This document shows positions 23,449-58,683 of a stretch of DNA of 64,000 nucleotides, in pieces. Origin of the DNA: a virus (taxonomy: Duplodnaviria > Caudoviricetes); the IMG/VR virus record IMGVR_UViG_2935054407_000001, positions 1 through 64,000 of that record. One strand, given 5' to 3'. The position numbers and the translations under genes are program-made. The notes beneath the pieces are model-generated. The model was not told where the DNA came from and did no database searches. It was given only the letters and a program-made list of their open reading frames with translations. The first letter of the stretch is position 1; every line of letters begins with the position of its first letter.

Positions 23449-23530
23449 GTCGCTCCTGTGTGAAAGACGGGATGCGTACACTCTGCCGTGCCGGTGTGAA
23501 AGACGCAAGCGCACGCATCCCGCCCAGCAG

Positions 23531-23998: not shown

Positions 23999-24247
23999 GC
24001 GAAATAGCTCCTGTCGCCAGGTGGTCTTTTGGGATGCCTCCATTCTCCCAGCCCTGGCCGACCGCAGCAACCGACCTCCGACGAGTGTCTACGCAGGTCA
24101 GGACCCCTTTTTCGAGCCTTCAGACGTGCTTGTGGGCCTTATTTAAGGGTTATCCCAGCGTAGAAGGGGCCGCTACGCCGTCGAAAGGCGGTCGCGAGCC
24201 TCTTAATTAAGCCCGCAGTGCACCAAAGCCCTTTTGTAACAGTCGGG

Positions 24248-24697
24248 TCACGGATTCTGAGCCCGTTCCCGGCGCGACTCCTCAGCCCGATAGGCGCGAG
24301 CAATAGGGCAATGACAGCGCTTTCGCGGCTCCTGGCGCTTCCAGCCGGTGCCCTCACAGGTGCAGGCCGCCGAAGTCGCCTCGTCCAGCTCGCGCCCCCA
24401 CTCCGGATCGATGCGCGCCAGGGCGTAGATCGCCTGGAAGCTCGTACGCAACCGCTCGGCCGCTTCGCGGGGACTGACGCCGTCTCTGATGGCCTCCAGG
24501 AGAGCCCGGCGTAGCCAAGCCGGATGGGCGGCGGCCAGTAGTTCCCGGCGGCGGGCGTTCTCCTCATCGACATGGGCGCATCGGGCCGCATCATCGCGAT
24601 TGCCGTAGCGGTATCTGGTGGCGTCCTTCAGCACAGGTCCTCCAACACGCGAGCAGGGGAAGGTGCCCGATGGGGTCTCGGGTACAAACCCCCGCAT
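24248..24697 (-). CDS. Hypothetical protein with HTH-like region and Cys cluster
   Basis: LLEAIRDGVSPREAAERL...; CTC...CHC; start uncertain. Confidence 0.55.
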   Translation of the reverse strand: MRGFVPETPSGTFPCSRVGGPVLKDATRYRYGNRDDAARCAHVDEENARRRELLAAAHPAWLRRALLEAIRDGVSPREAAERLRTSFQAIYALARIDPEWGRELDEATSAACTCEGTGWKRQEPRKRCHCPIARAYRAEESRRERAQNP

Positions 24698-24789
24698 GCG
24701 TGGGGAGCATGCCGCTCAGAAAGCGGCTGTCCTCGCCCTCAGAGGACTATCCCCCGCGAGTGCGGGGCCAATAGCCGCACGATACACGA

Positions 24790-25002
24790 TCACCAGAACC
24801 GGAGACTGAAGCGCGAACCGCCATCTCCGGTGTCCTCTGGCGCGATCACGTCCTGCTGGTCCGGCTCCCCGAACCGCTCGACCATCGACGTATAGGCGCT
24901 CGCCAGTTCCGGAGCGTCTGGCGGGAAGACTCCCCAGCTTTGCACCGTCGCCGTACCGTCCTCGGCGTATCGAACGAACATGATGCGGGTTCCTGGTTGC
25001 AT
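24790..25002 (-). CDS. Hypothetical protein
   Basis: First gene left of the non-coding block. Confidence 0.5.
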   Translation of the reverse strand: MQPGTRIMFVRYAEDGTATVQSWGVFPPDAPELASAYTSMVERFGEPDQQDVIAPEDTGDGGSRFSLRFW

Positions 25003-25023
25003 GCGACGTATCCTATCCCACCG

Positions 25024-25078
25024 AATTAGATCTAATTAATTCAATTAGCCCAATTAATTCAATTAATTAGATTAATTG
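25024..25078. repeat. AT-rich AATT tandem tract
   Basis: aattagatctaattaattcaattagcccaattaattcaattaattagattaattg in a GC-rich genome. Confidence 0.85.
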
Positions 25079-26037
25079 CCCGAATTCCCGTGATTCCGTG
25101 GCTTCCGCAGCTCCGTGACCTTCCGTGAGCTAGCAGTTACGCCGCATCACCGGCCACTGTTCTCACTCTCCGTACTCCCGGCGCGGCTCTGGTCGGGCCG
25201 TCAAGGTACCCCTGCAAGATCATTTAAGGGTGGGGGGGTACCTGTCAAGGCCAAACGCTTGTTACAACGCGTTCTAGACCACCTACGTAGAGCCATTGGG
25301 ACTTGCGAGAATAGCCCTACTCGCACACCGTGCCTGATCAGGTCAAACTACTGAGAGTATTTCGGAAATCCTGTCAAGAGCCCTTCGACCTGCAATGACG
25401 CAGCGTGCATCGACACACAGCGTTAGGAACATTGGTACAGGGAAACGCGCGTGATCCGAACCGGCTACTGTCAGAAACGCCTGACTGAGACCTGTTGCCG
25501 TTGCCTCACTGAGCGGAAATGGGACGCAATCCCCACTACTCAAGTAGGTTAACTGAGCGTTATGTAATGACATTCGCTCAAAGTGCTTGCAGCGCGCTTG
25601 CAATAGCAAGCAGTGCGATCCACGCGAGCCGCGCGACGCGCGCACGGGCGAGACCTCGGCCAATCTCCCTATGCCTCTGTATGCGTCTGTAGTGTCTCTA
25701 TGGCTGGAGTAGGTGTCCTTTAAGGTACTTGGACCTGAGCCCGATTTTCTCGTCTCTATGGTGTGTTGTAGAGGCGTACAGAGGCATTCCCTTAGGGCTT
25801 CCCCGATCCCCCCGAATTCGCGGGCAGGGTGCGGGCGAACGGCAGTGCTGGCACGCGCGAGAGCCGATCCCGCACGCGCCGGAATTCTCCCACGGAATGC
25901 TCGAATGTCCGAATCATCGGTGTGACCTGCGTCACACTTTGAAGATCTTTTGACCCTTGAACAAGATCAAACCAAGCATGTGATTGGTTGGTACACGAGG
26001 GTAAAAGTGCAGGTCACAAGCGAATTTTAGAAATGTG

Positions 26038-26066
26038 TTGACATCTATACTCGAAACGAGGATAGT
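26038..26066 (+). promoter_or_regulatory. Housekeeping-sigma promoter of the rightward operon
   Basis: TTGACA-N17-GATAGT with AT-rich upstream region. Confidence 0.8.
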
Positions 26067-26071
26067 TCTCG

Positions 26072-26910
26072 TTGTGAGGCCAGCGGGACCGGCCACACGG
26101 AGCCTCCCGGCTCCGGACTCGCGAAAGCGGGAACGGGGAAGGTGCGGGCATGAAGCTTGATAACCGCATAGGACGTACGGGATACGGATGGACTCTGTAC
26201 CCAACGACCCCGGCAATATCTGAGATGCTCGCGTTTCAGTCCCCTATGTGTGGACGCGCTAGAGCGGCCGGTGAAAATTCGTTGGACGCCAGAGGTCTAT
26301 TAGGTCACGCACGCCCTGTGTCGGGAATCTTGCGGTTGCTTGAGAATTTAATTTAAGCCTGTTTCTTCGGGCGGGACGCTGCGCTTTATGGCGCGCGGTC
26401 CAGCGCTCGCTGTGCTAGCTGGCAGACCCTTTGGAAAGGTCAAGACCAGTCGGGAAGCGAGAAAGCTGGGACGTGCTACCTAAAATGCGGCCAACGTGTA
26501 AGAACGGGTAGAGCAATACGGACACAGCCTATGTCATGAGCTGTACCTACGCGTTAGTGTGCGCACGGGCAACCGTGTGCCGAGATTTCGCGATGACCGT
26601 ACGGATAACGCGCTTAGATGCGTCTTTCAGCCCAAATTCTGTGGGCAGACGCTAGCGACAGATCACGACGCGAGCGATTACGCGGGCAGGCCAAAGCACA
26701 AGGTCACAGCGTCATAGGTGGGAGTGTCTAGGTACAGAGAACGCAAGCGAATGCGTTCGGGCGAATGCATCGGTAACCCGATGATGTGCACGAACGAAAA
26801 GCCGTAGCGGGTAGCTGTACCAAGCACGCCGGGAAATGGCCTAGCGAACCATTTCCCTGTGTGTTCTCAACACGGGCAACCGCGCGTGTTGGGAACATGC
26901 ACCAAGGCAA
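26072..26910 (+). ncRNA. Long structured leader / candidate ncRNA with boxA-like motifs
   Basis: No credible ORF; many hairpins; TAACCGCA (26161) pairs with TGCGGTTG (26331); TTGCTTGAGAA at 26336. Confidence 0.5.
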
Positions 26911-26930
26911 ATCACAGAAAGGCGGAATAC

Positions 26931-27104
26931 ATGATCACTCTTGAATACAACCCGTATGCGAAGCAATTCGACGTCAAGCGTGATGGCGAATACGTAGGCG
27001 TGGTTCAGGAGAACTATGGCACATACCGTGCCCAAAAAATCGGCGCAGACTGCGCATACACGAAACAGAGCATGTGTGACGCGCTCGACGCAATCAGCGA
27101 ATAA
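26931..27104 (+). CDS. First small early gene
   Basis: CACAGAAAGGCGG RBS then ATG. Confidence 0.7.
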   Translation: MITLEYNPYAKQFDVKRDGEYVGVVQENYGTYRAQKIGADCAYTKQSMCDALDAISE

Positions 27105-27112
27105 GTAGTAAC

Positions 27113-27179
27113 GGCGAAACGCGCGTCTTTCAGACAGGCACGCGTCGTACGTGATTGGTCATCACGTGCCTGATGAGCC
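27113..27179 (+). ncRNA. Type II hammerhead ribozyme HH1 (predicted cleavage after 27146)
   Basis: ggc-GAAAC-stemIII-GUC-gtacgtgat/atcacgtgc-CUGAUGA-gcc. Confidence 0.92.
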
Positions 27180-27220
27180 AAACCGGACTCACAGAGACGA
27201 CACAGAATGAGGGCGACCAA

Positions 27221-27454
27221 ATGGCTAACGGGCATCTGTCCAACGTGCGGGCCGACGACTACATGGGGGTCATCCTCGGAGCCGCATTTTCCGTCGGCTG
27301 GCACGCGGAACAGCAGGAGGACGCGAGCTATGTCCTGACGCGCGGAGACGTGACGGTCACGCTGCCGTACGTCCAGAGCATGCGCGACGCGTTCGACGTG
27401 CTGGCCTTCATCGAGACCTCCGGACTGATGGAGCGCATCACGGGCAGGCGTTGA
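27221..27454 (+). CDS. Hypothetical early protein
   Basis: ATG downstream of HH1. Confidence 0.7.
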   Translation: MANGHLSNVRADDYMGVILGAAFSVGWHAEQQEDASYVLTRGDVTVTLPYVQSMRDAFDVLAFIETSGLMERITGRR

Positions 27455-27561
27455 CCTTCTCCCGCGTTTCCCTGTGTGCTAGCGTCTTTCACACCGGCAG
27501 GCGCTAGCACACCCTTCACACGCTCTGACCTGGCTTCACTGTGCCTGAGAGGCAACCAATC

Positions 27562-27870
27562 ATGATCGTTACGGCTCTGTGGTTTGGCGGCAACGGCTCT
27601 TACAGCCTCCCGGACGCTGACAGCGTCGAACAGTTCACCAGCATCACGCACGCTATCAACACGTTCCGGGAGCGTGCCGAGACGTCGGGCGCGTTCGGCC
27701 TGCCGACGTACTTCGTGAACCGGGAGAACTCCCGTGTGTGCTTCCCGGCCGTGGGCGAGGACTGCACCATGGACGTCTACATCGGGCGTGCTGGCGAGAC
27801 TGCCAACTATCCGGATTTCCGCCTGGCGCTCGGACCGCGCGGCGGCGTCAAGCGAGAGAGCTACGTCTAG
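27562..27870 (+). CDS. Hypothetical early protein
   Basis: WFGGNGSYS...YPDFRLALGPRGGVKRE. Confidence 0.75.
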   Translation: MIVTALWFGGNGSYSLPDADSVEQFTSITHAINTFRERAETSGAFGLPTYFVNRENSRVCFPAVGEDCTMDVYIGRAGETANYPDFRLALGPRGGVKRESYV

Positions 27871-27874
27871 ACAA

Positions 27875-27945
27875 GCCGAAACATGCGTCCTTCACACCGG
27901 GAGACGCGTGTCGTACGGGACTGATCGCCCGTGCCTGAGGATGGC
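27875..27945 (+). ncRNA. Type II hammerhead ribozyme HH2 (predicted cleavage after 27912)
   Basis: gcc-GAAAC-atgcgtc/gacgcgt-GUC-gtacggg/cccgtgc-CUGAGGA-tggc. Confidence 0.9.
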
Positions 27946-27982
27946 AGATCCCCATCACCACACACAGAAAGACGGTACAACC

Positions 27983-28567
27983 ATGCTTCCCGAGGTTGAG
28001 AAGTACTTCGCCGCTCGCGACGCCCGCAACAGCTCCGACTACTGGGACAGGCGCTCGCAGGCGGAGCAGGACAACCCGGTTCCGGCCTGGTCCCCCCTCC
28101 TTCCGAAGGAGGAGAGAGCGGCTTACTACGTGGCGGCAGAGAAGCGTGAGGCTGCCCTCCGGCAGGTGGACAATGACTGGAAAGAGGCGGAAGCGGCTGC
28201 GTTCGATGCTCTCCGCGAATCGGAGAACGCAATGGTCCGCTGGATCGCGACCACGCCGCCGGTCCTCAACGGTTACGAGCACCACGCGCACACGGTTCTC
28301 CGCGCTCTCCCGATGACGCGTGAGGAGATCGAGACGTTCGGCGATGAGCAGGGTTGGTGCGGTGAGTACGGACGTTTCCTGAGGCTGGCCGAAAAGGCAG
28401 GTGTCCTGCCCGAGCAGGCGCCCGACCTGGCCGACATCGAGCCCCTGGTGGACGCGCTTCGGGACTGGTACGGCGGCGGTGCCGACAACACGTTCCGCAA
28501 GATAATCCGGAAGCAGCTCCCGGCGCTGATCGAGAGTGCCCGCGAGAGGGCTGCTGTCCAGCAGTAA
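27983..28567 (+). CDS. Hypothetical early protein flanked by HH2 and HH3
   Basis: CACAGAAAGACGG RBS; 194 aa. Confidence 0.75.
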   Translation: MLPEVEKYFAARDARNSSDYWDRRSQAEQDNPVPAWSPLLPKEERAAYYVAAEKREAALRQVDNDWKEAEAAAFDALRESENAMVRWIATTPPVLNGYEHHAHTVLRALPMTREEIETFGDEQGWCGEYGRFLRLAEKAGVLPEQAPDLADIEPLVDALRDWYGGGADNTFRKIIRKQLPALIESARERAAVQQ

Positions 28568-28568
28568 A

Positions 28569-28640
28569 GGCGAAACGCACGTCTTTCACACCGGGAGACG
28601 TGTGTCGTACGTGGGTGGTGCCCGCGTGCCTGATGATGCC
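28569..28640 (+). ncRNA. Type II hammerhead ribozyme HH3 (predicted cleavage after 28606)
   Basis: ggc-GAAAC-gcacgtct/agacgtgt-GUC-gtacgtggg/cccgcgtgc-CUGAUGA-tgcc. Confidence 0.9.
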
Positions 28641-28681
28641 AAACCGGACTCACAGCCATCACACAGAAAGACGGTAAACAC

Positions 28682-29788
28682 ATGTCTCGCGAGACTGCGC
28701 AGTGGCTCAACACCATGACCCTCATCGGCTTCACCGGCAAGCGTGGCAAGGCGTGGCACTACCGTGCCGACGTCCAGGGTGACGAGAGCAACCACTACGA
28801 CGGCGCCATTCCCGTGGAAGACGTCAAGCGGCGTCTGTTCCACTGGGCGCCCGTCGAGATGCCCGTGTTCACCATCGTCCCCCCGCGTTTCGACCTGGAC
28901 GGCGTCCACCCCGCGCGTATCGTCCGCCTGGACGGGCGTAAGGCCGTTCTCCGGGATGACGAGCTGGCGGCGGCGGGTATCGACCTGACCGGCCTGGACC
29001 TGTCCGGCAACCTGTGGGACCTGCCCGGCATGGACGCCATGGGCATGTTCAAGGACTCGTACCAGCCGCACCCCTACCACGAGTGGCTCGTGCTGAACGT
29101 GGAGCGGATCCTGGACGGGAACCTCTCCATCGGCTCGGCCGGTCTGCTGCGCGGCGGTGCTCAGGCGTGGGTGAGTGTGGAAGTGCCGGACAACATCACC
29201 ACGCCAGAAGGGGTCGAGTTCCGGCCGAATCTGCTGGCGTGCACGTCCTTCGACGGCTCGTTGGCGACCACGTACAAGCGCCACGTCACGGTGGTCGTGT
29301 GCGACAACACGCTGAGCATCGCCAGGGGCGAGAACGGACAGCAGTACAAGGTCAAGCACACGAGCAAGAGCCTCAACCGCATCACTGACGCTCGCGAGGC
29401 TCTGAACATCGTCTACAGCGCTGCGGACGACTTCGCGGCGGAAGTGGCGGAGCTGTGCCGGATCGACGTGTCCGACAAGGCGTGGGCCGCCTTCATGAAC
29501 GAGATCGCGCCCCTGCCCGAGGACCCGAAGAACAAGCGGGGTGCCACCATGGCGGAGAACAAGCGCGCGGAGTACAACCGCCTGTGGAACCACGACGCTC
29601 GCGTCTCCCCCTGGCAGAACACCGCCTACGGCGTGCTGGCTGCGGTCAACACGTACGACCACCACATTGCCACCACGCGCGGCATGAGCCGGGCCGACCG
29701 CAACATGGACAAGGCCGTGAGCGGTGACTTCGACAAGCTGGACCGAAGCACGCTCGCCACGCTGACCAAGGTTCTCGCCACCGTCTAG
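28682..29788 (+). CDS. DUF932 (phage/plasmid TIGR03299-like) protein
   Basis: SAGLLRGGAQAWV, PNLLACTSFDGSLAT, VVCDNTL, TAYGVLAAVNTY. Confidence 0.88.
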   Translation: MSRETAQWLNTMTLIGFTGKRGKAWHYRADVQGDESNHYDGAIPVEDVKRRLFHWAPVEMPVFTIVPPRFDLDGVHPARIVRLDGRKAVLRDDELAAAGIDLTGLDLSGNLWDLPGMDAMGMFKDSYQPHPYHEWLVLNVERILDGNLSIGSAGLLRGGAQAWVSVEVPDNITTPEGVEFRPNLLACTSFDGSLATTYKRHVTVVVCDNTLSIARGENGQQYKVKHTSKSLNRITDAREALNIVYSAADDFAAEVAELCRIDVSDKAWAAFMNEIAPLPEDPKNKRGATMAENKRAEYNRLWNHDARVSPWQNTAYGVLAAVNTYDHHIATTRGMSRADRNMDKAVSGDFDKLDRSTLATLTKVLATV

Positions 29789-29882
29789 GCGGTTCGTTGG
29801 GCACGCGTCTTTCACACCGGGAGACGCGTGTCCTTCAATCCGATGTGACGTCGGTACCTCCCCCAGAAAGGCGGCTCTAACG

Positions 29883-30155
29883 ATGATCAACAGACTGCGG
29901 ACGTCGCAACAGGTGGCTACTCTCCTGCTTTCGCTCGGCTGCACGGGCGTCCAGCAGCTCGCTAGAAAGTGCCCTGTGTCCGCGTACTACAGACTCCAGT
30001 ACCCGCACGCGACGCGAGTGACTGTAGGTCGTTACAACGTGACCCTCTGTTTCGGCAGCTTCAGGTACACCACCATCCCCAATTCCGCAGCCGTGCGACG
30101 GTTCATCGGGGAATTCGACTGTGGCGCCTACCCCGGCTTGATCCGTAAGCCGTAG
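29883..30155 (+). CDS. Hypothetical early protein
   Basis: CAGAAAGGCGG RBS. Confidence 0.65.
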   Translation: MINRLRTSQQVATLLLSLGCTGVQQLARKCPVSAYYRLQYPHATRVTVGRYNVTLCFGSFRYTTIPNSAAVRRFIGEFDCGAYPGLIRKP

Positions 30156-30157
30156 CC

Positions 30158-30406
30158 ATGGCGGCATACCCGCCTGGATTCATTCCCGCGCTTTCTGATG
30201 ACTCGCCGGAAGTCCGGGCGGATGCCGCTCTGTGGATTATCGGGGAACGCGAGACAGAGCTAACCGGCATCGAAGCGCGCATAGAGCAAGAGCGCAACGC
30301 GTCGCGACGGAACAAGCTCCGCACCAAGCACAAAGCCCTACAGAACAACATCAGCGCGTGGCAGGTGTACATGGACGATGGTTGCCCGCGCTACGCACCT
30401 AGCTAA
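30158..30406 (+). CDS. Hypothetical early protein
   Basis: Coiled-coil ORF in the operon. Confidence 0.55.
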   Translation: MAAYPPGFIPALSDDSPEVRADAALWIIGERETELTGIEARIEQERNASRRNKLRTKHKALQNNISAWQVYMDDGCPRYAPS

Positions 30407-30426
30407 CACACAGAAAGGCGGAACAC

Positions 30427-30582
30427 ATGCTCATGGCCCCCCGCAACCGTGGCCGTGTCGGATTCTCCGGCTGCGAATTCACCTGCTGCCCGATCTGGTC
30501 GAACAAGCGGCGCGAGCGGCGCCACATCCGGCGTAGGGAGCGCCAGACGGTTAACCGGATGCTCGTCGCTCTCGACTACTAG
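30427..30582 (+). CDS. 51-aa basic peptide absent from the ORF track
   Basis: CACAGAAAGGCGG RBS; MLMAPRNRGRVGFSGCEFTCCPIWSNKRRERRHIRRRERQ... Confidence 0.65.
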   Translation: MLMAPRNRGRVGFSGCEFTCCPIWSNKRRERRHIRRRERQTVNRMLVALDY

Positions 30583-30643
30583 CCGAAACGCACGCTACGG
30601 CGTGCGTCGTACCGGGATTGGTTACCCGGTACCTGATGACGGC
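30582..30643 (+). ncRNA. Type II hammerhead ribozyme HH4 (predicted cleavage after 30608)
   Basis: gcc-GAAAC-gcacgc(UACG)gcgtgc-GUC-gtaccggg/cccggtac-CUGAUGA-cggc. Confidence 0.95.
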
Positions 30644-30676
30644 AGACCACCGTTAACACACAGAAAGGCGGGAGAT

Positions 30677-31207
30677 ATGGCTCCGCGCATTGACAGGAAC
30701 ATCGTGTTGGTTCTCGACGTCGAAGAGAACTACGGATACGGTCACATTTACGCCAGGCCGCGCGTGGAGAACAACGGCTTTCAGAAGTACGCCGATGCCC
30801 CCGTGTTGCTCTCTCCGGGACTGGGTGACCGGTACGGCTGGGACGAGCCGTACAACCACCTGGGCAACCTTCGCGCTTCGTGCCAGTACGACGTTACCAA
30901 CCGTTCGTGTGTCTACGGCTACGAAATCGAGTACGCCGACATGACCAGGGTCCGCACGCGTGAGGCTGAGGTCATGGCGAAGGCTCTCCGCAAGATAGAC
31001 CGGGAGATGAACAAGCTTCGCGACGCGCACGGCTACCCCGATTCTTATGGGGAGTACCTGGCGCACTTCGCCGCCGCGATCGGATGCAACCGCTTCGCCA
31101 TTAGGCATCGCGAAATGCGCGCCAACGGCACCCACTACCAGTGGTTGGACGTGGCCGGTATGCGCTCGTGGGTCGCACAGCAGACGGCGGACAAGGTGTC
31201 TGCGTAG
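30677..31207 (+). CDS. Hypothetical early protein
   Basis: CACAGAAAGGCGG RBS. Confidence 0.75.
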   Translation: MAPRIDRNIVLVLDVEENYGYGHIYARPRVENNGFQKYADAPVLLSPGLGDRYGWDEPYNHLGNLRASCQYDVTNRSCVYGYEIEYADMTRVRTREAEVMAKALRKIDREMNKLRDAHGYPDSYGEYLAHFAAAIGCNRFAIRHREMRANGTHYQWLDVAGMRSWVAQQTADKVSA

Positions 31208-31347
31208 GCGACGGATCCGATCCGGTCTAGGCGAGCTAGGGGGATGTGCGGACACGCGCCGTGCCTCCCTCAGTTCGATGTGACATCGGACTGCTTAAAC
31301 CCCCATGCGTCTTTCACACAGGCACGGCGCAACACAGAAAGGCGGCT

Positions 31348-31929
31348 ATGACACCTATCCCCCTCCCGATTTCTGGTGAGACGCACGAACGGTTCGTGTC
31401 CAGCATCCTGGACGTCTGGCACAGCGCTACGCCGGACCAGTTGGAGCGTGGAACGCGCTGGTATCCCCAGGCTAACCAGTTCGCCGCCATGATCTCTGGT
31501 GGCGACGTAGTAGCCGGGGCCGGTGTCATCGCTGCCCTGTCCGCCAATAAGCGATGGGACGAGAACACCAAGATTGCGGCCCGCGCTTTCGTGAATGGTG
31601 AACCGTCGGGGCACGTCGGTGATGCGCTCACGAAAGCGGCTCGGATCATGGGCGGTGAGTCACCTTCGGATGTCCTGCCCATGGACGTCAAGACGGGCCA
31701 GTTTTTCCGATGCATCGCTGACCCGACGGACCCTGAGGCGGTCTGTGTGGACCGTCACGCGCATGATGTGGCGGTTGGTCGCCGGTATGGCAGTGCGGAC
31801 CGTGGCCTTAGCTCTCGCAAGCGTTACAAGGCCATTGCGGACGCCTACAGGGAGGCCGCTAGGCGGCTGGGTGTCCTGCCTCTGACAGTCCAGGCCGTTT
31901 GCTGGATTGTCCAGATCGAAGCCAACTAA
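31348..31929 (+). CDS. Phage protein, possibly DNA glycosylase-like (DUF7178-like)
   Basis: GTRWY, GVIAALS..KRWDEN, VCVDRHA, QAVCW. Confidence 0.65.
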   Translation: MTPIPLPISGETHERFVSSILDVWHSATPDQLERGTRWYPQANQFAAMISGGDVVAGAGVIAALSANKRWDENTKIAARAFVNGEPSGHVGDALTKAARIMGGESPSDVLPMDVKTGQFFRCIADPTDPEAVCVDRHAHDVAVGRRYGSADRGLSSRKRYKAIADAYREAARRLGVLPLTVQAVCWIVQIEAN

Positions 31930-31947
31930 TCCAGAAAGGCGGATGAC

Positions 31948-32379
31948 ATGCCGTACACGGCACATGGTCACTGGTTTGGCGACGGTGAGCCCACCGGGCC
32001 TAGGCCGGACAGGGTCACACGGTGCAACGGACTGCACGGGTGCCCGCAATGCAAGATGGATGCCGAGCTGGTCTCGATGCTCGCGAGTCCTAAAAAGGGA
32101 ATCGCTCTCAAGTTCGGTGACCAAATTTCGAACGGTGCTCACGTGCTGGCCTACACCGGCATCCACAGCAGCACGAGGATCACACGCGCGGTTGCGCTGT
32201 GCTGGTGTCCAACGCGGAAAGAGTTCGTGATCTGGACCATCGAATACGGATACGCCGACCAGGGCGAAGCCTGGTACGCACACAACGGCCACCGCGCGGG
32301 ACAAGACCTCGCCTATGCCCTGCTGAGCTATACGCAGCAGGCCGGTCCCGGCGCCTCTCTCCCGAATTTCATCTACTAG
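31948..32379 (+). CDS. Hypothetical early protein
   Basis: RBS; RCNGLHGCPQC. Confidence 0.7.
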   Translation: MPYTAHGHWFGDGEPTGPRPDRVTRCNGLHGCPQCKMDAELVSMLASPKKGIALKFGDQISNGAHVLAYTGIHSSTRITRAVALCWCPTRKEFVIWTIEYGYADQGEAWYAHNGHRAGQDLAYALLSYTQQAGPGASLPNFIY

Positions 32380-32450
32380 GCGAAACGCGCGTCTTTCACA
32401 CCGGTAGGCGCGCGTCGCGTCGGGAGTCGTTACCCGATGCCTGATGAGCC
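32379..32450 (+). ncRNA. Type II hammerhead ribozyme HH5 (predicted cleavage after 32416)
   Basis: ggc-GAAAC-gcgcgtct/aggcgcgc-GUC-gcgtcggg/cccgatgc-CUGAUGA-gcc. Confidence 0.93.
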
Positions 32451-32478
32451 AGACCACACAGAAAGAGGGCACAGACCC

Positions 32479-32829
32479 ATGAGCAACACCGCTAAGCAGA
32501 TCCAGGTTGGGACGCACGGCAAGGGCCTGCGGGCGCTGATTGAGGCCCTGGAGACCTGCACTCCCTTCAAGACGGCTGGTGCCTTTCAGGCCATGGCTGG
32601 CGTGCCCTCCGGGACCGGCCGCATGCCGAAGGATGAGCGCGAGCGTTTCGAGACCGACCGACCGCAGATCACGTACACCGTTCTTTCGTACGCCACCCCG
32701 ATTGCCTGGGTTCTGGAGAACGGAGAGACGTACGTCTCTGACACCTATTACTCACCCACGACGACCAAGCACCAGAGCCGTGTTCGCGTGTATCTGAACC
32801 GCGCAAACGTCATTGACGAGGCTGCGTAA
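32479..32829 (+). CDS. Hypothetical phage protein
   Basis: YTVLSYATPIAW...YSPTTTKHQS. Confidence 0.75.
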   Translation: MSNTAKQIQVGTHGKGLRALIEALETCTPFKTAGAFQAMAGVPSGTGRMPKDERERFETDRPQITYTVLSYATPIAWVLENGETYVSDTYYSPTTTKHQSRVRVYLNRANVIDEAA

Positions 32830-32897
32830 CGGTCGTGAGCGCTTCTGACATCGCCCGGAAATCCGGGCGGTGTTGGTGGCACGGCGAACGTGTCAGA
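32830..32897 (+). repeat. 68-bp intergenic structured repeat, copy 1
   Basis: Near-identical to 33500-33567. Confidence 0.9.
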
Positions 32898-32927
32898 CCT
32901 AAGAACATACACAGAAAGAGGGTTGTA

Positions 32928-33497
32928 ATGCTCACAGAGATCCGTGCCATCGCTACCGATGTTGCTCGCGAGATGGGTAACTGGACCATTCGCGACGGCT
33001 ACATGAACGGCCAGTTCTTCATCGCCGACGAGAACAAAGAGCTGTGCCTGATGTTCGATCTCACACACGAGACGGGCAGGCTCAGCATCAGTGCCTCGTA
33101 CCCGAAGAATTCCAGTGTGGTGCACGGCATCAAGGGCTACAGCATCCGCGTGTCTTACAAGCGCGGCGCGGTCGTGATCGCACGGGAGATCAAGCGGAGG
33201 TTGATGCCTGACTACCTCCGCGAGCTGGAGAGCGTTGTCACACGGATCGCCGCTCACGAGGCGGAGGAAAGGCGGCAGGCGACCATAGCGCAGACCGTCG
33301 CAACGGCGCTTGGTGTCGATTGCCCGGAGACCGTCCACCCATCCGGAGTCTATGTCCGTAGCGGCTGGTGCGGTCCGAAGGCGCCCGTTACACGCTCGGA
33401 ATTCCGCGTCATGTCCGGTAGCAGCGTGGCTATCGAGATCAAGACGGATGGTGAGGTAGCCGCAAAGATCGCCGAATTCCTTCGGACTCTTATGTAG
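32928..33497 (+). CDS. Hypothetical early protein
   Basis: ACAGAAAGAGG RBS then ATG. Confidence 0.7.
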   Translation: MLTEIRAIATDVAREMGNWTIRDGYMNGQFFIADENKELCLMFDLTHETGRLSISASYPKNSSVVHGIKGYSIRVSYKRGAVVIAREIKRRLMPDYLRELESVVTRIAAHEAEERRQATIAQTVATALGVDCPETVHPSGVYVRSGWCGPKAPVTRSEFRVMSGSSVAIEIKTDGEVAAKIAEFLRTLM

Positions 33498-33499
33498 TG

Positions 33500-33567
33500 C
33501 GGTCGTGAGCGCTTCTGACATCACCCGGATTTCCGGGCGGTGTTGGTGGCACGGCGAACGTGTCAGA
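33500..33567 (+). repeat. 68-bp intergenic structured repeat, copy 2
   Basis: Near-identical to 32830-32897. Confidence 0.9.
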
Positions 33568-33591
33568 GCAACACGCAGAAAGGCGGGACAG

Positions 33592-34191
33592 ATGGGATCG
33601 ATTGGACTTCACCGCGAGCCTGGCATGACCGATCGGGAATTCTTCGAGAAGGAGTTCCCGAACATGCTCGGCAAGTATGGGCAGATCGTGGCCTGTGCTT
33701 CCAACCCCGCTGGTGGCGATTGGAACCGTGCTTTCTATGCGGCGGTCACCAACAACGATGACGCGTCGTATAAGCCGGGCGAGACGTGGGCGTTGGTCGT
33801 GCTGATGCGCAACGACCGTAAATCGTCGGGCGGGTGCAACTTCTACTACAAGGACTTGGACGAGACCATGGGGCCGGTTGAAAGCACCTGCCCGGACCGG
33901 ATTCTTGACCTCCTGTCACCGACCGAACATGCAGGGGCCACCAGGTGGCGAGAGCGCTGCCGTGCCCACAATGCCCGCCTGGACAAGGCGCGGAAGCTCA
34001 CCGACGGTCAGATCATCCGCTTCACCAACCCCATGCCCTTCGGTGAGCCGTATGGAGAGGCTCAGCGCTTCCGCTACCGGAAGGCGGGGCGTAAGTCGGT
34101 CCTTGAAGCGATCACCGATGACGGGGAATTCCGCTTCCGTGCCCGGATTCCCGGCTGGCGCGCAATGTCATTCGAGATCGAGAACAACTAG
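33592..34191 (+). CDS. DUF6927-like protein
   Basis: FYAAV, FYYKDLDETMGP...CPDRILDLLSPT...WRERC. Confidence 0.75.
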   Translation: MGSIGLHREPGMTDREFFEKEFPNMLGKYGQIVACASNPAGGDWNRAFYAAVTNNDDASYKPGETWALVVLMRNDRKSSGGCNFYYKDLDETMGPVESTCPDRILDLLSPTEHAGATRWRERCRAHNARLDKARKLTDGQIIRFTNPMPFGEPYGEAQRFRYRKAGRKSVLEAITDDGEFRFRARIPGWRAMSFEIENN

Positions 34192-34207
34192 CAGAAAGAC
34201 GGTAGTG

Positions 34208-36918
34208 ATGGACATCCCCGCTCTCCTCGTACGCATGGCGCGCAGCGTTCCCCGGCACGACAATGCCCGAATGATTATGTGGACGGCACACGAGGCGGTG
34301 AACAACACGTCTGACCTGGTGGATGGTGCACGGGCAGCGCTGGCGTACGTGTCAACGCACATCGGCGATGCTCCCGGACAGTCCAGGGATGAGCTGCTAA
34401 ATGACGCGGTTGCGGTGCTCTCCCTACATCTGGCGCTGCACACCATCGCCGAAAAGTACAAGTAAGGGAAAGGCGGGAGTAATGCCAGAGCGGCGCAAGG
34501 CGACCACGAAATACACGCTCGTACAGCACAGCGGGAGCACATCGCATGCGGAATTCCGGCACGCGGTAGAAGTGCTCTCCGTCTCGACGCTCACGGAACA
34601 GGACAAGATCGAAAAGGTCGGCGGCCTGCTGTTCGAGAGCTGGGAGGAGGCGGACAACAGGGAGTACGAGGAGAACTACCCGCCGGGGGTTACCGGGCTC
34701 TACCCGCGCGTGCCCGGCACGTTCCGGACCGATCTGAAAATCGATGGGTTCAACCTCTACATCCCCGCTGCGAAGAACGACACGGAAGGCCAGTGACCAT
34801 GCCTCTTACCGCCCCCGAAAAGCGAGCCATCAAGCGGGCTTACCGCTGTGTCGTGATGCTGAACGAGCACACGCCGGAATGGCGCGGAATGGTGGACAAG
34901 GACACCCTTGCCATGCATCACACGAGCCGCTGTGTGTTCGGCCAGGTGTTCGGCGACTTCAACGAAGGGATCGACGTGCTGTCCCTGCACGGTTGCGACG
35001 AACCGCAGCGCTACGGGCTGGATCTCGACGTGAGGAACGACGTCATGTACCCCGTGCTGGACACCGCCTGGCGGATCGTGCTTGACCACCTGGACGCGCG
35101 GTCGGCCTAGCGGATCCTCTGGTCCCCATGCCTGCCAAATATCGGGGGCGGGCATGGGCGGCCGGGGCGTCCGCTTGGACGATCACCACCACACACACAC
35201 AGAAAGGCGGGAGATGGGAAGGCACAGCAGGAACCGATCGCCGTACCCGGCCAGCAGCACGACCCCTGACCGCTCACAGGTCACGGAATCTGAGAGCGAG
35301 GCTCTCGTCCGGCTCGCTGCTCTGGTCTGTCACAACATCGCTACCGGCTTCGCTCCGGAGCGGGCTGTGGAGGCGGCTCTCCGTTCCTTCGACGACCCCG
35401 AAAGCGTGGTCGAGCTGTGGGCAGCGGTCTGGGAGCGCATCAAATCTGAAGACACCGAAAGGCGGTAGAACCATGACCTACAACCACGCACGCATGACGG
35501 ACGCGGATCGCGCTAGGAACACCCGCACCATCACGAACAGGCTCATCCATGCATGGGAGATCATGAAGGCCACGGGTCCGGTTTCTGGCCCAGCCGACTA
35601 CTACACTGGGATGTCCACCGCGTACGAGGCGTTCACCGGCTGCAACCCCGTAGCGCTGTCGATGGCGCTGGACGACAACCGGAAGCGCCACGGCAATCTG
35701 TCGCTCTCCGATCGGGCTGACAAGCTGATCGAGTCCTTGTCTCTGGCCGAGGTCTTCCCCTACCTCAAGGACGGGGACGCGTGATGACTGCATACGAGAT
35801 CGCTGCTCGGGCCGCTTTCTTCGCCTCCCAGCGCGCGACACAGGCGACCGTGGCAGAGCTGCACAGGTGGGAGCGCGCGGCTCGGCGCTCTGGCAACCGC
35901 GAGCACGTCAAGGAGATCCGGCGCGAGGTGAGGCGCATTCGCGCTACCAAGCGGCTCTCTCTCATCAAGCACGGCGGCGCGTGGGCCTGCTTCGACAACC
36001 GCACGGGGTCAGTCTGCGAGACCTTCGCTTACCGCATGGACGGCGCGACCTACGTCGAGTACTGGAACGGCCAGTACCACAAGCACACGTCCTAGCGGAT
36101 CCTCCGATCACCGCGCGTCTTTCACACCGGTAGAGATGCGCGGCCGGTCGGGGCGTCCGCTGGGGCGATCACGACCAACACACACAGAAAGGCGGGAGAT
36201 CTATGCGCTTCTCCTACATCAACGAGGACTACATGCGCGAGCGGTGGCCGGTCGGCTGCCGAGCACGGCTCAAGAGCCTTCCGGGGAACTCGACCACCCT
36301 GACGATCGCCCCGCACGCGGAGACGAACTCCCCCTACAACCTCCGCTACTCGACGCGGACCAAGAGCGGTCCGGCGGTCAACATCACCTACCCGAAGTAC
36401 TGGCGGAACCGCAAGGGCGGCTGGGTGTTCGCCGCAGCGCTCCGACTGATCGGTAAGTGCGCTGACGGTACGTGCAACCACGCGGAAAGGCGGTAGATCC
36501 GCGTGCACTGTGACCGTTGCGGCCGAGAGCTGCGGGCCTGGCCGTTGGAGCGCGGAAGCCGTTGCAGCCCCAAGCGGTGGACGTACTGCATCAGGCCGAA
36601 GAGCGACTGAGACTCCCCAACCGCACACAGAAAGGCGGTAGTTCCACCATGCCTAAGATCCTGATCGCCACCGACAAGGCTCCGCAGAGCAGCGTCCCCA
36701 ACGTGCGCGGGATGAACTGGGTGGCCCGTCGCGCCGCCATCATCCGCGCGGCCTTCCACCTGGAGAGGCAGGAGCGGGCCGTGCGGGCGCTGATGGCGAT
36801 GACCTTCGACGGCGACGAGCGGATCAAGCTCAAGGCCCTGCTCCAGCAGATCCAGGCGGACATCCGGAGCATCCACGTCTACGCCAAGGCCGGTTATCCG
36901 TCTGTCCGGGAGATCTGA
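34208..36918 (+). other. Run of small early genes (34208-34465, 34482-34796, 34793-35110, 35214-35468, 35473-35784, 35781-36095, 36203-36496, 36503-36610, 36649-36918)
   Basis: Most preceded by GAAAG(G/A)CGG; 36503-36610 is a 35-aa Cys peptide absent from the ORF track. Confidence 0.7.
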
Positions 36919-57839: not shown

Positions 57840-58683
57840 GCGCCGGAATCATGCCGGTGTGAAAGACGGCTTCCTTGATCGAGGTGGCCTTCTCAAGCAG
57901 CGGCTCGACGACGGCCATGTCCAGCGAGATCGCGAATTCCTTGACGGCCTGGTTGCTCTTGTACTCATACAAAAAGGTCCCGCGCCGGACCCCCAGGCCC
58001 ATGAGGCGCATCGTGATGTAGAGGTAGATCTGGAGCTGGCGGACGTGCGACGGCAGCGGCTCCTGAAGGTCGGCCCACAGGCCGTCCAGGTCGTAGAGCT
58101 TCTTCCCAGCCTCATCGCTGGCGAAATACCACTCCTTGAGCACCTCGGGCGCGTCCATGCGAAGCGTTCCCATGCCGATGGTCTTGATCTCGATCAGCCG
58201 GGCCTTCTCCAGAAGCATGCCGTCGGAGTGGCCCTCGATCAGGAATTCCTTCTCGGCCCGGATCGGCACCTCGGCATACGTCACCGCGAAGGACCAGCAG
58301 CGCGGACACTGCTTGGGGTCAAGACGCAGGTCGGTGACATGGCCACAGTGCAGGCACTTCCACTGGCCATACAGGTCGCCGCTCAGCCTCAGCCAATTCT
58401 GCCATTTGTCATGCAGAGCGTGGCCGGTGGCGAAAATGCTCTCCATCTGGAAGTTGAAATCTGGCCGGGCAGGCATCTTGCCAGCGCGGGCATCCACGAT
58501 CCGGTAGTACGTGGAGCGGGCGCACCAATCATCCTTGGCCATCTCGGAGGGGTGGATGACGTCGGCACGCCGGTCGGTCGGCTTGAGCAGCTCGGCCGCG
58601 ACGTTCTCTGAGATGTCTCCCAGGACGTCCCAGTGCGTTCCCTTGCGCCTGCTGATCTCGGCGAGAGTGCCGCTCAGCTTTAT
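57535..58683 (-). CDS. Cas4/RecB-like PD-(D/E)XK exonuclease
   Basis: HPSEM..WC.R, GHSDG, IEIKT, QLQIY, CTDCPYFSRC; start uncertain. Confidence 0.85.
   Translation of the reverse strand: MKLSGTLAEISRRKGTHWDVLGDISENVAAELLKPTDRRADVIHPSEMAKDDWCARSTYYRIVDARAGKMPARPDFNFQMESIFATGHALHDKWQNWLRLSGDLYGQWKCLHCGHVTDLRLDPKQCPRCWSFAVTYAEVPIRAEKEFLIEGHSDGMLLEKARLIEIKTIGMGTLRMDAPEVLKEWYFASDEAGKKLYDLDGLWADLQEPLPSHVRQLQIYLYITMRLMGLGVRRGTFLYEYKSNQAVKEFAISLDMAVVEPLLEKATSIKEAVFHTGMIPAREFARDSKTCTDCPYFSRCWSDVAPDQPNTEPAGADQPGQPAGTARAGKSRTGAARAARRVPAATAEGPDGAVGRRADGAVQPPQRMGRLRREPTGIGGDR

Follow-up and report, generated by a model that had tools for sequence, protein, structure and literature searches.

What are five copies of the same small RNA structure doing in the spacers of a single phage gene block? 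The question is raised by the window that we analysed here, the first 64 kilobases (kb; 64,000 nucleotides) of the 108,967-base virus record IMGVR_UViG_2935054407_000001 (Duplodnaviria; Caudoviricetes), which is rated complete; the window has a G+C content of 63%. Between 27.1 and 32.5 kb, the plus strand of the window carries five hammerhead-shaped elements (HH1 to HH5), with one to three open reading frames (ORFs) between neighbours. An initial annotation of this region had drawn attention to a pseudoknot between loop I and the 3' tail of each element and to the closeness of the elements to upstream stop codons. By sequence and predicted fold, all five are real type II hammerhead ribozymes and new members of a known family. 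The reading that we favour, at a probability of roughly 65%, is that they are functional and would serve as intergenic messenger RNA (mRNA)-processing cassettes in a same-strand block of early, non-structural genes of an actinophage-like genome.

An Rfam scan of the window, followed by a permissive scan of positions 24000-36000, gave five matches to Hammerhead_II (RF02276), all on the plus strand and each aligned over the full length of the model. Three of them reach the gathering score of 37 bits, at 30581-30651 (49.2 bits), 32378-32458 (42.4 bits) and 27874-27953 (37.2 bits), and two fall below it, at 28568-28644 (33.5 bits) and 27112-27183 (27.6 bits). The low scores of these two, HH3 and HH1, are due to their long stem III loops and to differences in the tail, and the core is not responsible; under our own model (R2), HH1 and HH3 score 84.9 and 98.1 bits, respectively. 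In each of the five copies we find the catalytic core CUGANGA and GAAA, together with the A-U pair that closes stem III and is followed by the cleavage-site C (GUC), HH2 having a G at the free core position 7. The three-way junction has the permuted arrangement of type II in every case: loops close stems I and III, and stem II is open. A model search of the entire record returned, beyond the five, just one 14.2-bit fragment. Rfam matches to RAGATH-25, mir-764 and cow-rumen-1 were disregarded, as their scores lie far under their thresholds. HH4, the best Rfam match of the five, has a stem III made of an 8-base-pair (bp) helix and a UACG tetraloop, and the other four copies have loops of 7-13 nucleotides (nt). 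The coordinates of the five copies and of the features around them are collected in Table 1.

Table 1. Positions of the five type II hammerheads (HH), their pseudoknots and flanking signals, and of related features (RBS, ribosome-binding site; minus-strand copies in lists are marked (-))
Feature	Coordinates	Strand	Details
Stop codon TAA before HH1	27102-27104	+	8 nt before stem II
HH1	27113-27187	+	stem II GGC 27113-27115 / GCC 27177-27179; GAAA 27116-27119; stem III 27119-27145; cleavage 3' of C27146; stem I 27147-27169; core CTGATGA 27170-27176; tail 27180-27187
HH1 loop/tail motif as first annotated	27157-27159 / 27182-27184	+	GGT / ACC
HH1 pseudoknot	27155-27159 / 27182-27186	+	loop TTGGT / tail ACCGG; 5 bp, two G.U
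RBS stretch and ATG after HH1	27199-27223	+	ATG 27221; start backed by homology from residue 1
Stop codon TAG before HH2	27868-27870	+	4 nt before stem II
HH2	27875-27953	+	stem II GCC 27875-27877 / GGC 27943-27945; stem III 27881-27911; cleavage 3' of C27912; stem I 27913-27934; core CTGAGGA and extra T 27935-27942; tail 27946-27953
HH2 motif as first annotated and pseudoknot	27923-27926 / 27947-27950	+	loop GATC / tail GATC; 4 bp
Next-gene ATG after HH2	27983	+	equivalent Shine-Dalgarno motif precedes
Stop codon TAA before HH3	28565-28567	+	1 nt before stem II
HH3	28569-28648	+	stem II GGC 28569-28571 / GCC 28638-28640; stem III 28575-28605; cleavage 3' of C28606; stem I 28607-28629; core 28630-28637; tail 28641-28648
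HH3 loop/tail motif as first annotated	28617-28619 / 28643-28645	+	GGT / ACC
HH3 pseudoknot	28616-28619 / 28643-28646	+	loop TGGT / tail ACCG; 4 bp, one G.U
Next-gene ATG after HH3	28682	+	equivalent Shine-Dalgarno motif precedes
Stop codon TAG before HH4	30580-30582	+	gap -1; its G is the first stem II base
HH4	30582-30651	+	stem II GCC 30582-30584 / GGC 30641-30643; short stem III with TACG loop 30588-30607; cleavage 3' of C30608; stem I 30609-30632; core 30633-30640; tail 30644-30651
HH4 loop/tail motif as first annotated	30619-30622 / 30646-30649	+	TGGT / ACCA
HH4 pseudoknot	30619-30623 / 30645-30649	+	loop TGGTT / tail GACCA; 5 bp, one G.U
Next-gene ATG after HH4	30677	+	equivalent Shine-Dalgarno motif precedes
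Stop codon TAG before HH5	32377-32379	+	gap -1; its G is the first stem II base
HH5	32379-32458	+	stem II GGC 32379-32381 / GCC 32448-32450; stem III 32385-32415; cleavage 3' of C32416; stem I 32417-32440; core 32441-32447; tail 32451-32458
HH5 loop/tail motif as first annotated	32426-32428 / 32452-32454	+	GTC / GAC
HH5 pseudoknot in the family register	32427-32431 / 32452-32456	+	loop TCGTT / tail GACCA; U-A, CxC, G-C, U-A, G.U
Next-gene ATG after HH5	32479	+	equivalent Shine-Dalgarno motif precedes
TTCACACCGG copies	23491(-), 27488, 27891, 28585, 29811, 32395, 36121, 51886(-), 57854(-); genome 74609(-)
Second-class hammerheads in viral contigs	L055:4743-4809, L067:2467-2530, L070:1256-1333, L061:5607-5680, L076:3083-3160

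For a structure-guided comparison, we built a covariance model with HH4 and HH5 as seeds and used Infernal to align all five copies anew; this alignment replaced one made with MAFFT, which had misplaced gaps in stem I. Standard pairs occupy 95.3% of its 128 cells, a percentage reached by none of 500 column shuffles, and pairing falls to 27-46% in slid controls. Changes on both sides of a pair are found at nine of the 26 pairs, with examples in each of the three stems. Stem II has 3 bp in all five copies and covaries, reading GGC/GCC in HH1, HH3 and HH5 and GCC/GGC in HH2 and HH4. Together, the intact cores and the double-change pairs in this alignment fit selection for structure, not passive decay. 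Nearest-neighbour folding places stems I and III in the minimum-energy structure of every copy, with stem II present in three of five folds without flanks and in none with 30-nt flanks. By itself, stem II is predicted to be marginal, and its loss from the flanked folds fits a need for tertiary support.

The published tertiary contact of type II hammerheads is the pseudoknot between loop I and the 3' tail (Perreault et al. 2011, PMC3088659). According to the published family work, it holds stems I and II parallel, offsets a very short stem II, which may have as few as two pairs (PMC3088659), and allows fast cleavage at low Mg. The same study reports a pseudoknot of four or more pairs in the majority of members and an observed rate constant (kobs) of >1.2 per min at 0.5 mM Mg; truncation lowered the rate 20-fold and then >100-fold, and a compensatory mutant rescued it. 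The expectation of pseudoknot-dependent fast cleavage at physiological Mg, with which the window was first annotated, matches these results. For each ribozyme we scored the best contiguous helix between loop I, with bounds taken from the model columns, and the first 10 tail bases (G-C 3, A-U 2, G.U 1), and compared own with permuted tails.

Every loop and tail motif quoted in the initial annotation is present in the sequence. Its central claim, that loop and tail covary in all five hammerheads, does not hold. The pseudoknot helix is paired in 21 of 25 cells (five pairs in five copies; alignment columns 52-56 with 78-82), and the GGU/ACC core of the helix is identical in HH1, HH3 and HH4. The sole double change among the five copies is in HH2, where A27924-T27949 replaces G-C; HH2 also has C-G where HH4 and HH5 have U.G. 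The tails of HH4 and HH5 are identical over their first seven bases (AGACCAC) and their loops differ, with UGGU in HH4 and UCGU in HH5. In HH5, this one-sided G-to-C change in the loop leaves a CxC mismatch next to the remaining G-C, U-A and G.U pairs. The GUC/GAC pairing originally assigned to HH5 keeps these three tail bases and moves the loop side three positions in the 5' direction; it is a shifted 3-bp match, and in either register just three contiguous pairs form. Its score of 8 is at chance level against a non-cognate mean of ~7, and four loop bases on the 3' side of the helix would stay unpaired. Such unpaired bases were counted in 69 distinct ribozymes from outside the window whose helix has at least 5 bp: there are 0 in 33 ribozymes, 1 in 32 and 2 in 4, and never more. 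The four unpaired bases place the GUC/GAC register outside the family geometry. The HH5 loop even pairs better with the tail of HH1 and HH3 (AGUC/GACU) than with its own, and the own tail is the best partner for one loop only, that of HH2. When tails were permuted among the five loops, 2046 of 5000 permutations reached the observed mean, which is not significant. Within this genome, the pseudoknot is thus best described, on the alignment, as conserved rather than covarying, compensated in HH2 and weakened in HH5.

We then drew on two sets of homologues, both fetched with patterns that leave loop I, the tail and the upstream sequence unconstrained. Set 1 derives from a hammerhead-shaped pattern scan of IMG/VR that yielded at least 118 stretches. 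With the five-copy model, 67 ribozymes were found in the 81 non-window loci searched (L007-L087); loci L088-L125 received a raw-pattern check only. The 64 rows analysed, five from the window and 59 others, have a complete stem II, and nine rows were dropped (eight with gaps in the stem II columns and a bare hairpin). Set 2 derives from a pattern specific to the stem I base of this phage, which led to 42 loci in metagenome contigs and seven in prokaryote genomes; it comprises 80 ribozymes, with 78 rows analysed and two dropped. A model search of 35 chance matches kept as control loci (L134-L168) found zero ribozymes. A permutation test was used instead of a fixed-column count of pseudoknot pairs because linker length varies among the rows of the broad alignment.

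In these sets, loops score higher with their own tails. The mean own score in set 1 (62 distinct) is 7.37 against 5.11 for permuted tails (standard deviation (sd) 0.35), and in set 2 (60 distinct) it is 12.20 against 7.33 (sd 0.37). The difference persists when set 1 is restricted to loops of at least 5 nt, one per contig and without the window copies (21 distinct; 11.10 against 7.38), and when set 2 is restricted to one per contig (31 distinct; 11.90 against 7.18, sd 0.53). None of 5000 permutations reached the observed value in any of these four tests. The same holds within the single array L194 (nine distinct; 13.44 against 8.90, sd 1.16; 0/5000), and in the single array L208 (seven distinct) the values are 14.00 and 9.15 (sd 1.35; 5/5000). 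The syntenic relatives of the phage are the metagenome contigs L184, L185 and L191, whose DUF932 protein is 57% identical and which also carry homologues of g27221, g27541, g29883 and g30158. In an alignment of the five window copies with the ribozymes of these contigs (17 rows, 15 distinct), 90.5% of the pseudoknot helix is paired. Two of the five pairs have double changes, one being the A-U of HH2 and the other a U-A in the five window copies against C-G in nine relatives. The 194-residue product of the gene between HH2 and HH3, used as a query, led to one distant locus (L007, 35% identity) without a ribozyme match.

The comparison indicates that the contact between loop I and the tail is real and selected, the evidence coming from the relatives and not from the five copies alone. 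Covariation in homologues from related phages, which the initial annotation had named as a check, is thus found by permutation and at the two double-change pairs of the near relatives. The accompanying proposal that the copies are under selection for activity rather than decaying repeats agrees with the intact cores, the compensatory stems and the homologues, which fit selection for structure; pseudoknot covariation inside the genome, on which it had been based, drops out of the argument.

The homologue searches also brought up two kinds of element that differ from the window copies. Some viral contigs carry a second class of type II hammerhead with a tiny stem I loop and without the loop-tail pseudoknot (Table 1). 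The 3' tail of this class (e.g. CAUCAG) is complementary both to the core CUGAUG and to sequence upstream of stem II, which suggests an extended, bulged stem II or an alternative fold that sequesters the core. Other single viral or metagenome contigs hold denser arrays: L194 has 11 copies in 7.4 kb, L208 has 10 matches (nine analysed), and L048, L026 and L055 have eight hammerhead copies each. Every copy in these dense arrays has its own pseudoknot sequence and is followed by a GGAGGAG-type RBS.

In the window, the ribozymes sit in spacers among short plus-strand ORFs (DUF932/phrog_1221, DUF7178/phrog_3842, DUF6927 and unknowns), and they form the same array pattern that is described in PMC3088659. 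Each cassette runs in the order stop codon, 3-base stem II strand, GAAA, stem III hairpin, GUC, stem I hairpin, CUGANGA, second stem II strand and tail. About 15-25 nt past the tail follows an extended Shine-Dalgarno motif, CACAGAAAG(A/G)(C/G)GG, and then the ATG of the next ORF. We infer a single transcript that spans all five copies; terminator-like sites show no excess in the region, and one promoter-like site lies upstream at 26038-26066, both being weak evidence. A megablast search with positions 26500-33000 found no match among deposited phages. In a distant search mode, the region has short protein-level similarities only, to phages of Rhodococcus, Microbacterium, Mycobacterium and Streptomyces, and therefore an actinobacterial host is likely.

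On the reading that we favour, the long early transcript would cut itself 3' of C17 in each spacer. Sequence and hammerhead chemistry together predict the ends of the fragments. The upstream piece would retain its stop codon and carry a 2',3'-cyclic phosphate at its end, 2 nt beyond the stem III hairpin. The downstream piece would start at the foot of the stem I hairpin, bear a 5'-hydroxyl there and have an RBS of its own further on. The operon would in this way be split into separately stable and separately translated units, a natural insulator, and by analogy we infer protection of the fragments and uncoupling of the cistrons. Published precedents are the several ribozymes that flank genes in prophages, the cutting of ~2-kb polycistronic RNAs in vitro and the cutting of the Agrobacterium triple in E. 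coli (PMC3088659).

Several points weigh against this reading. A 2019 review (PMC6765202) regards the function of bacterial hammerheads as unresolved and the benefit of operon cutting as unproven, with polycistronic processing offered as a suggestion. HH1 and HH3 lie under the Rfam gathering threshold. The patterns used to fetch both homologue sets require a consensus core, and the sets sample the family without enumerating it. The pseudoknots of the window are short (3-5 bp, several G.U) compared with a mean helix of 5.0 bp in set 2. Some copies, HH5 above all, may be slow, because shortening the pseudoknot from 6 to 4 bp cost ~20-fold in rate in a published construct (PMC3088659).

The position of the ribozymes relative to the upstream stop codon raises an alternative view of how cleavage is controlled. 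The early description of a stem II of ~3 bp that touches the stop codon is right about the length in all five copies; as to contact, it is exact for HH4 and HH5, nearly so for HH3 and wrong for HH2 and HH1, the gaps being -1, -1, 1, 4 and 8 nt. We extended the measurement to the 142 rows of both homologue sets, of which 138 have at least 200 nt of upstream sequence and represent 131 distinct viral, metagenome and genome contexts. An ORF of at least 50 codons ends within 40 nt upstream of the ribozyme in 113 of the 131 contexts. The gap between stop and stem II falls within -1 to +2 nt in 64 of them when the longest ORF is taken and in 67 when the nearest is taken; the median is 2 nt, and no overlap exceeds 1 base. 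Random positions in the same loci fall within this range in 113 of 5240 cases (2.16%), so that a hammerhead starting practically at the upstream stop codon is ~20 times commoner than chance. The signal is kept in raw pattern matches without the model filter (46/134 and 13/41). Stop-codon adjacency is real and family-wide.

It could mean that a ribosome terminating at the adjacent stop codon unwinds the 3-bp stem II and the GAAA core, delaying the cut during heavy upstream translation and releasing it when translation falls. The tight gaps and the marginal stem II of the folding predictions speak for such gating. On the other side, the ribozymes are packed just as tightly downstream: a next start codon was found for 60 of the 64 set 1 rows, mostly 15-35 nt past stem II, and because it is so close, both sides of the ribozyme are tightly packed. 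Plain compaction of the spacer predicts the same layout, and gating is compatible with the adjacency and not required by it, because compaction explains the layout equally well. A terminating ribosome covers ~9 nt of mRNA beyond the stop codon. With this footprint, HH1 would be almost untouched and HH2 about half covered. Moreover, an irreversible cut set against a transient ribosome would be merely delayed unless ribosome traffic is dense. We consider such gating unlikely. The general form of the idea, in which phage type II cassettes have their 5' edge locked to the stop codon and a terminating or recycling ribosome holds stem II and GAAA open, seems to us slightly less likely still. If it were true, the cut between cistrons would report on upstream translation and be timed by it, and the gate would act especially strongly on the copies of this phage, given their weak pseudoknots (3-5 bp).

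Whatever its cause, the stop-codon rule is the only part of this work that might be new. The term 'stop codon' is absent from the sections of the hammerhead literature consulted (PMC3088659, PMC6765202, PMC8782182), whose supplements may show such positions, and full-text literature searches gave no paper on the adjacency. The pseudoknot finding is an ordinary one, a published tertiary contact met again in five new instances. The adjacency offers a testable variable, upstream translation, for the long-open question of the role of phage and bacterial hammerheads, and the phage itself provides a natural test series in the compensated HH2, the weakened HH5 and the spacers that contain a hairpin only.

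These hairpin-only spacers, at 27455-27561, 29789-29882 and 36095-36200, have the UAG-GCG start and the CAGAAAGGCGG RBS of the cassettes and are without the GAAA and CUGAUGA cores. The free-standing hairpins at 27478-27508 and 29802-29830 lie just past stop codons, and a similar one is near 36112. In the relative L185, a full hammerhead (1327-1400) lies just downstream of the g27221 homologue, where the window has the first hairpin-only spacer. Such spacers may be decayed ribozymes or a separate 3'-end element.

The second of these options has a counterpart within the ribozymes, since stem III might belong to a two-part 3'-end module. In HH2, HH3, HH5 and the diverged HH1, stem III would be a copy of a genome-wide hairpin with a UUUCACACCGG loop that is bound by a phage or host protein; the ribozyme would serve to leave the upstream message ending exactly in this hairpin, and cleavage might in turn be adjusted by the bound protein. 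CGTC(T/C)TTCACACCGG is indeed present in stem III loops, those of HH2, HH3 and HH5, and the 10-mer TTCACACCGG has 10 exact copies in the genome, three of them in these loops, against one for its reversed control. The copies are co-oriented with the local genes wherever the ORF lists allow a judgement, and at 23491(-), 27488, 29811, 36121 and 51886(-) the same loop caps stems of different sequence. However, HH4 has a plain TACG loop and the ribozymes of the relatives are without the motif, and therefore the repeat is not needed for the ribozyme. The copies at 57854 and 74609 are without a convincing hairpin, and a role at the DNA level, for example as a regulator binding site, is conceivable as well. 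The repeat might act in RNA, as a hairpin bound by a protein, or in DNA as a site, and we regard the two-part module as improbable. The 10-mer usually lies inside a 15-mer, CGTCTTTCACACCGG. This 15-mer has 35 single-copy matches in IMG/VR, a number consistent with chance, none of them with a ribozyme, and they were used as a negative control.

Alternatively, the cassettes could be copies of a mobile or duplicating spacer element that persist without benefit and resemble one another through recent copying. The five have long identical stretches in common, among them the RBS and the motif of the stem III loop. Hairpin-only spacers that are flanked in the same way occur at 27478-27508, 29802-29830 and ~36105-36180, the first of them where the syntenic relative has its full ribozyme, and the pseudoknot covariation within the five copies is not significant. 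These features are met by the intact core of every copy and by differences between copies that are compensatory in all three stems. In addition, the corresponding spacers of relatives with 45-57% protein identity still hold ribozymes, whose pseudoknot sequences differ and yet remain complementary. We give this explanation little credence and prefer that of functional processing cassettes.

Disruption of the pseudoknot by 30S subunits binding at the downstream RBS seems unlikely, as the tail helix lies ~33-37 nt before the ATG in the window, a distance that is probably outside the 30S initiation footprint.

Some features of the surrounding genes are of interest in their own right. The extended Shine-Dalgarno motif, (CA)CAGAAAGGCGG, precedes many genes of the block whether or not a ribozyme is present, as at 29863-29882, 30407-30426 and 31928-31947; it also follows the five window ribozymes and those in L184, L185 and L191. 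The GTG start listed for the ORF at 27541-27870 is probably too early, homology to the relatives beginning at residue 8, that is, at ATG 27562. The first 21 nt of this ORF resemble a degenerate ribozyme end (CUGAGAG-GGC-AACC). The ORFs at 32835-33497 and 33505-34191 have near-identical first 20 residues, VSASDI(A/T)R(K/I)SGRCWWHGERVR, which point to local duplication of a gene start. The phage also encodes a proline transfer RNA (tRNA-Pro, anticodon GGG) at 1640-1715.

[quoted passage not shown] The likeness is one of analogy and not of membership: RiboJ-type insulators are engineered type III hammerheads from plant satellite RNA, and those of the window are type II. A ribozyme that spans nearly the whole spacer and cleaves near the next start codon is likewise found in the fungal RNA virus PtFV1 (PMC13725137). 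That ribozyme is a type I hammerhead of a eukaryotic RNA virus, with a proposed part in cap-independent translation and no bacterial operon.

Closer to the present case are the type II hammerheads of Desulfovibrio vulgaris, for which Olzog et al. 2021 (PMC8782182) report, using cyPhyRNA-seq, that three copies cleave in vivo. Both sets are type II and both lie near phage-like genes; those of D. vulgaris are three dispersed chromosomal copies, whereas the window holds an array. The arrays of Agrobacterium tumefaciens (the ardA triple), Clostridium scindens and Azorhizobium caulinodans prophages (PMC3088659) share with the window several same-strand ribozymes on either side of single genes or of short blocks whose function is unknown; cutting of a polycistronic RNA is expected in each. 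Unlike these prophage arrays, the five copies described here occupy a 5.3-kb stretch in the genome of a free phage, obtained from a metagenome, and other contigs found here have up to 11 copies (L194). Compared with RF02276 as a whole (PMC3088659), the topology, the open stem II of 2-3 bp, the core, the pseudoknot between loop I and the tail (just 3 bp in HH5) and the phage or prophage setting are all the same. Nothing differs in kind: the pseudoknot helices of the window are short (3-5 bp, several G.U), two of its copies score below the gathering threshold, and a repeat motif particular to this genome occurs in three of its stem III loops.

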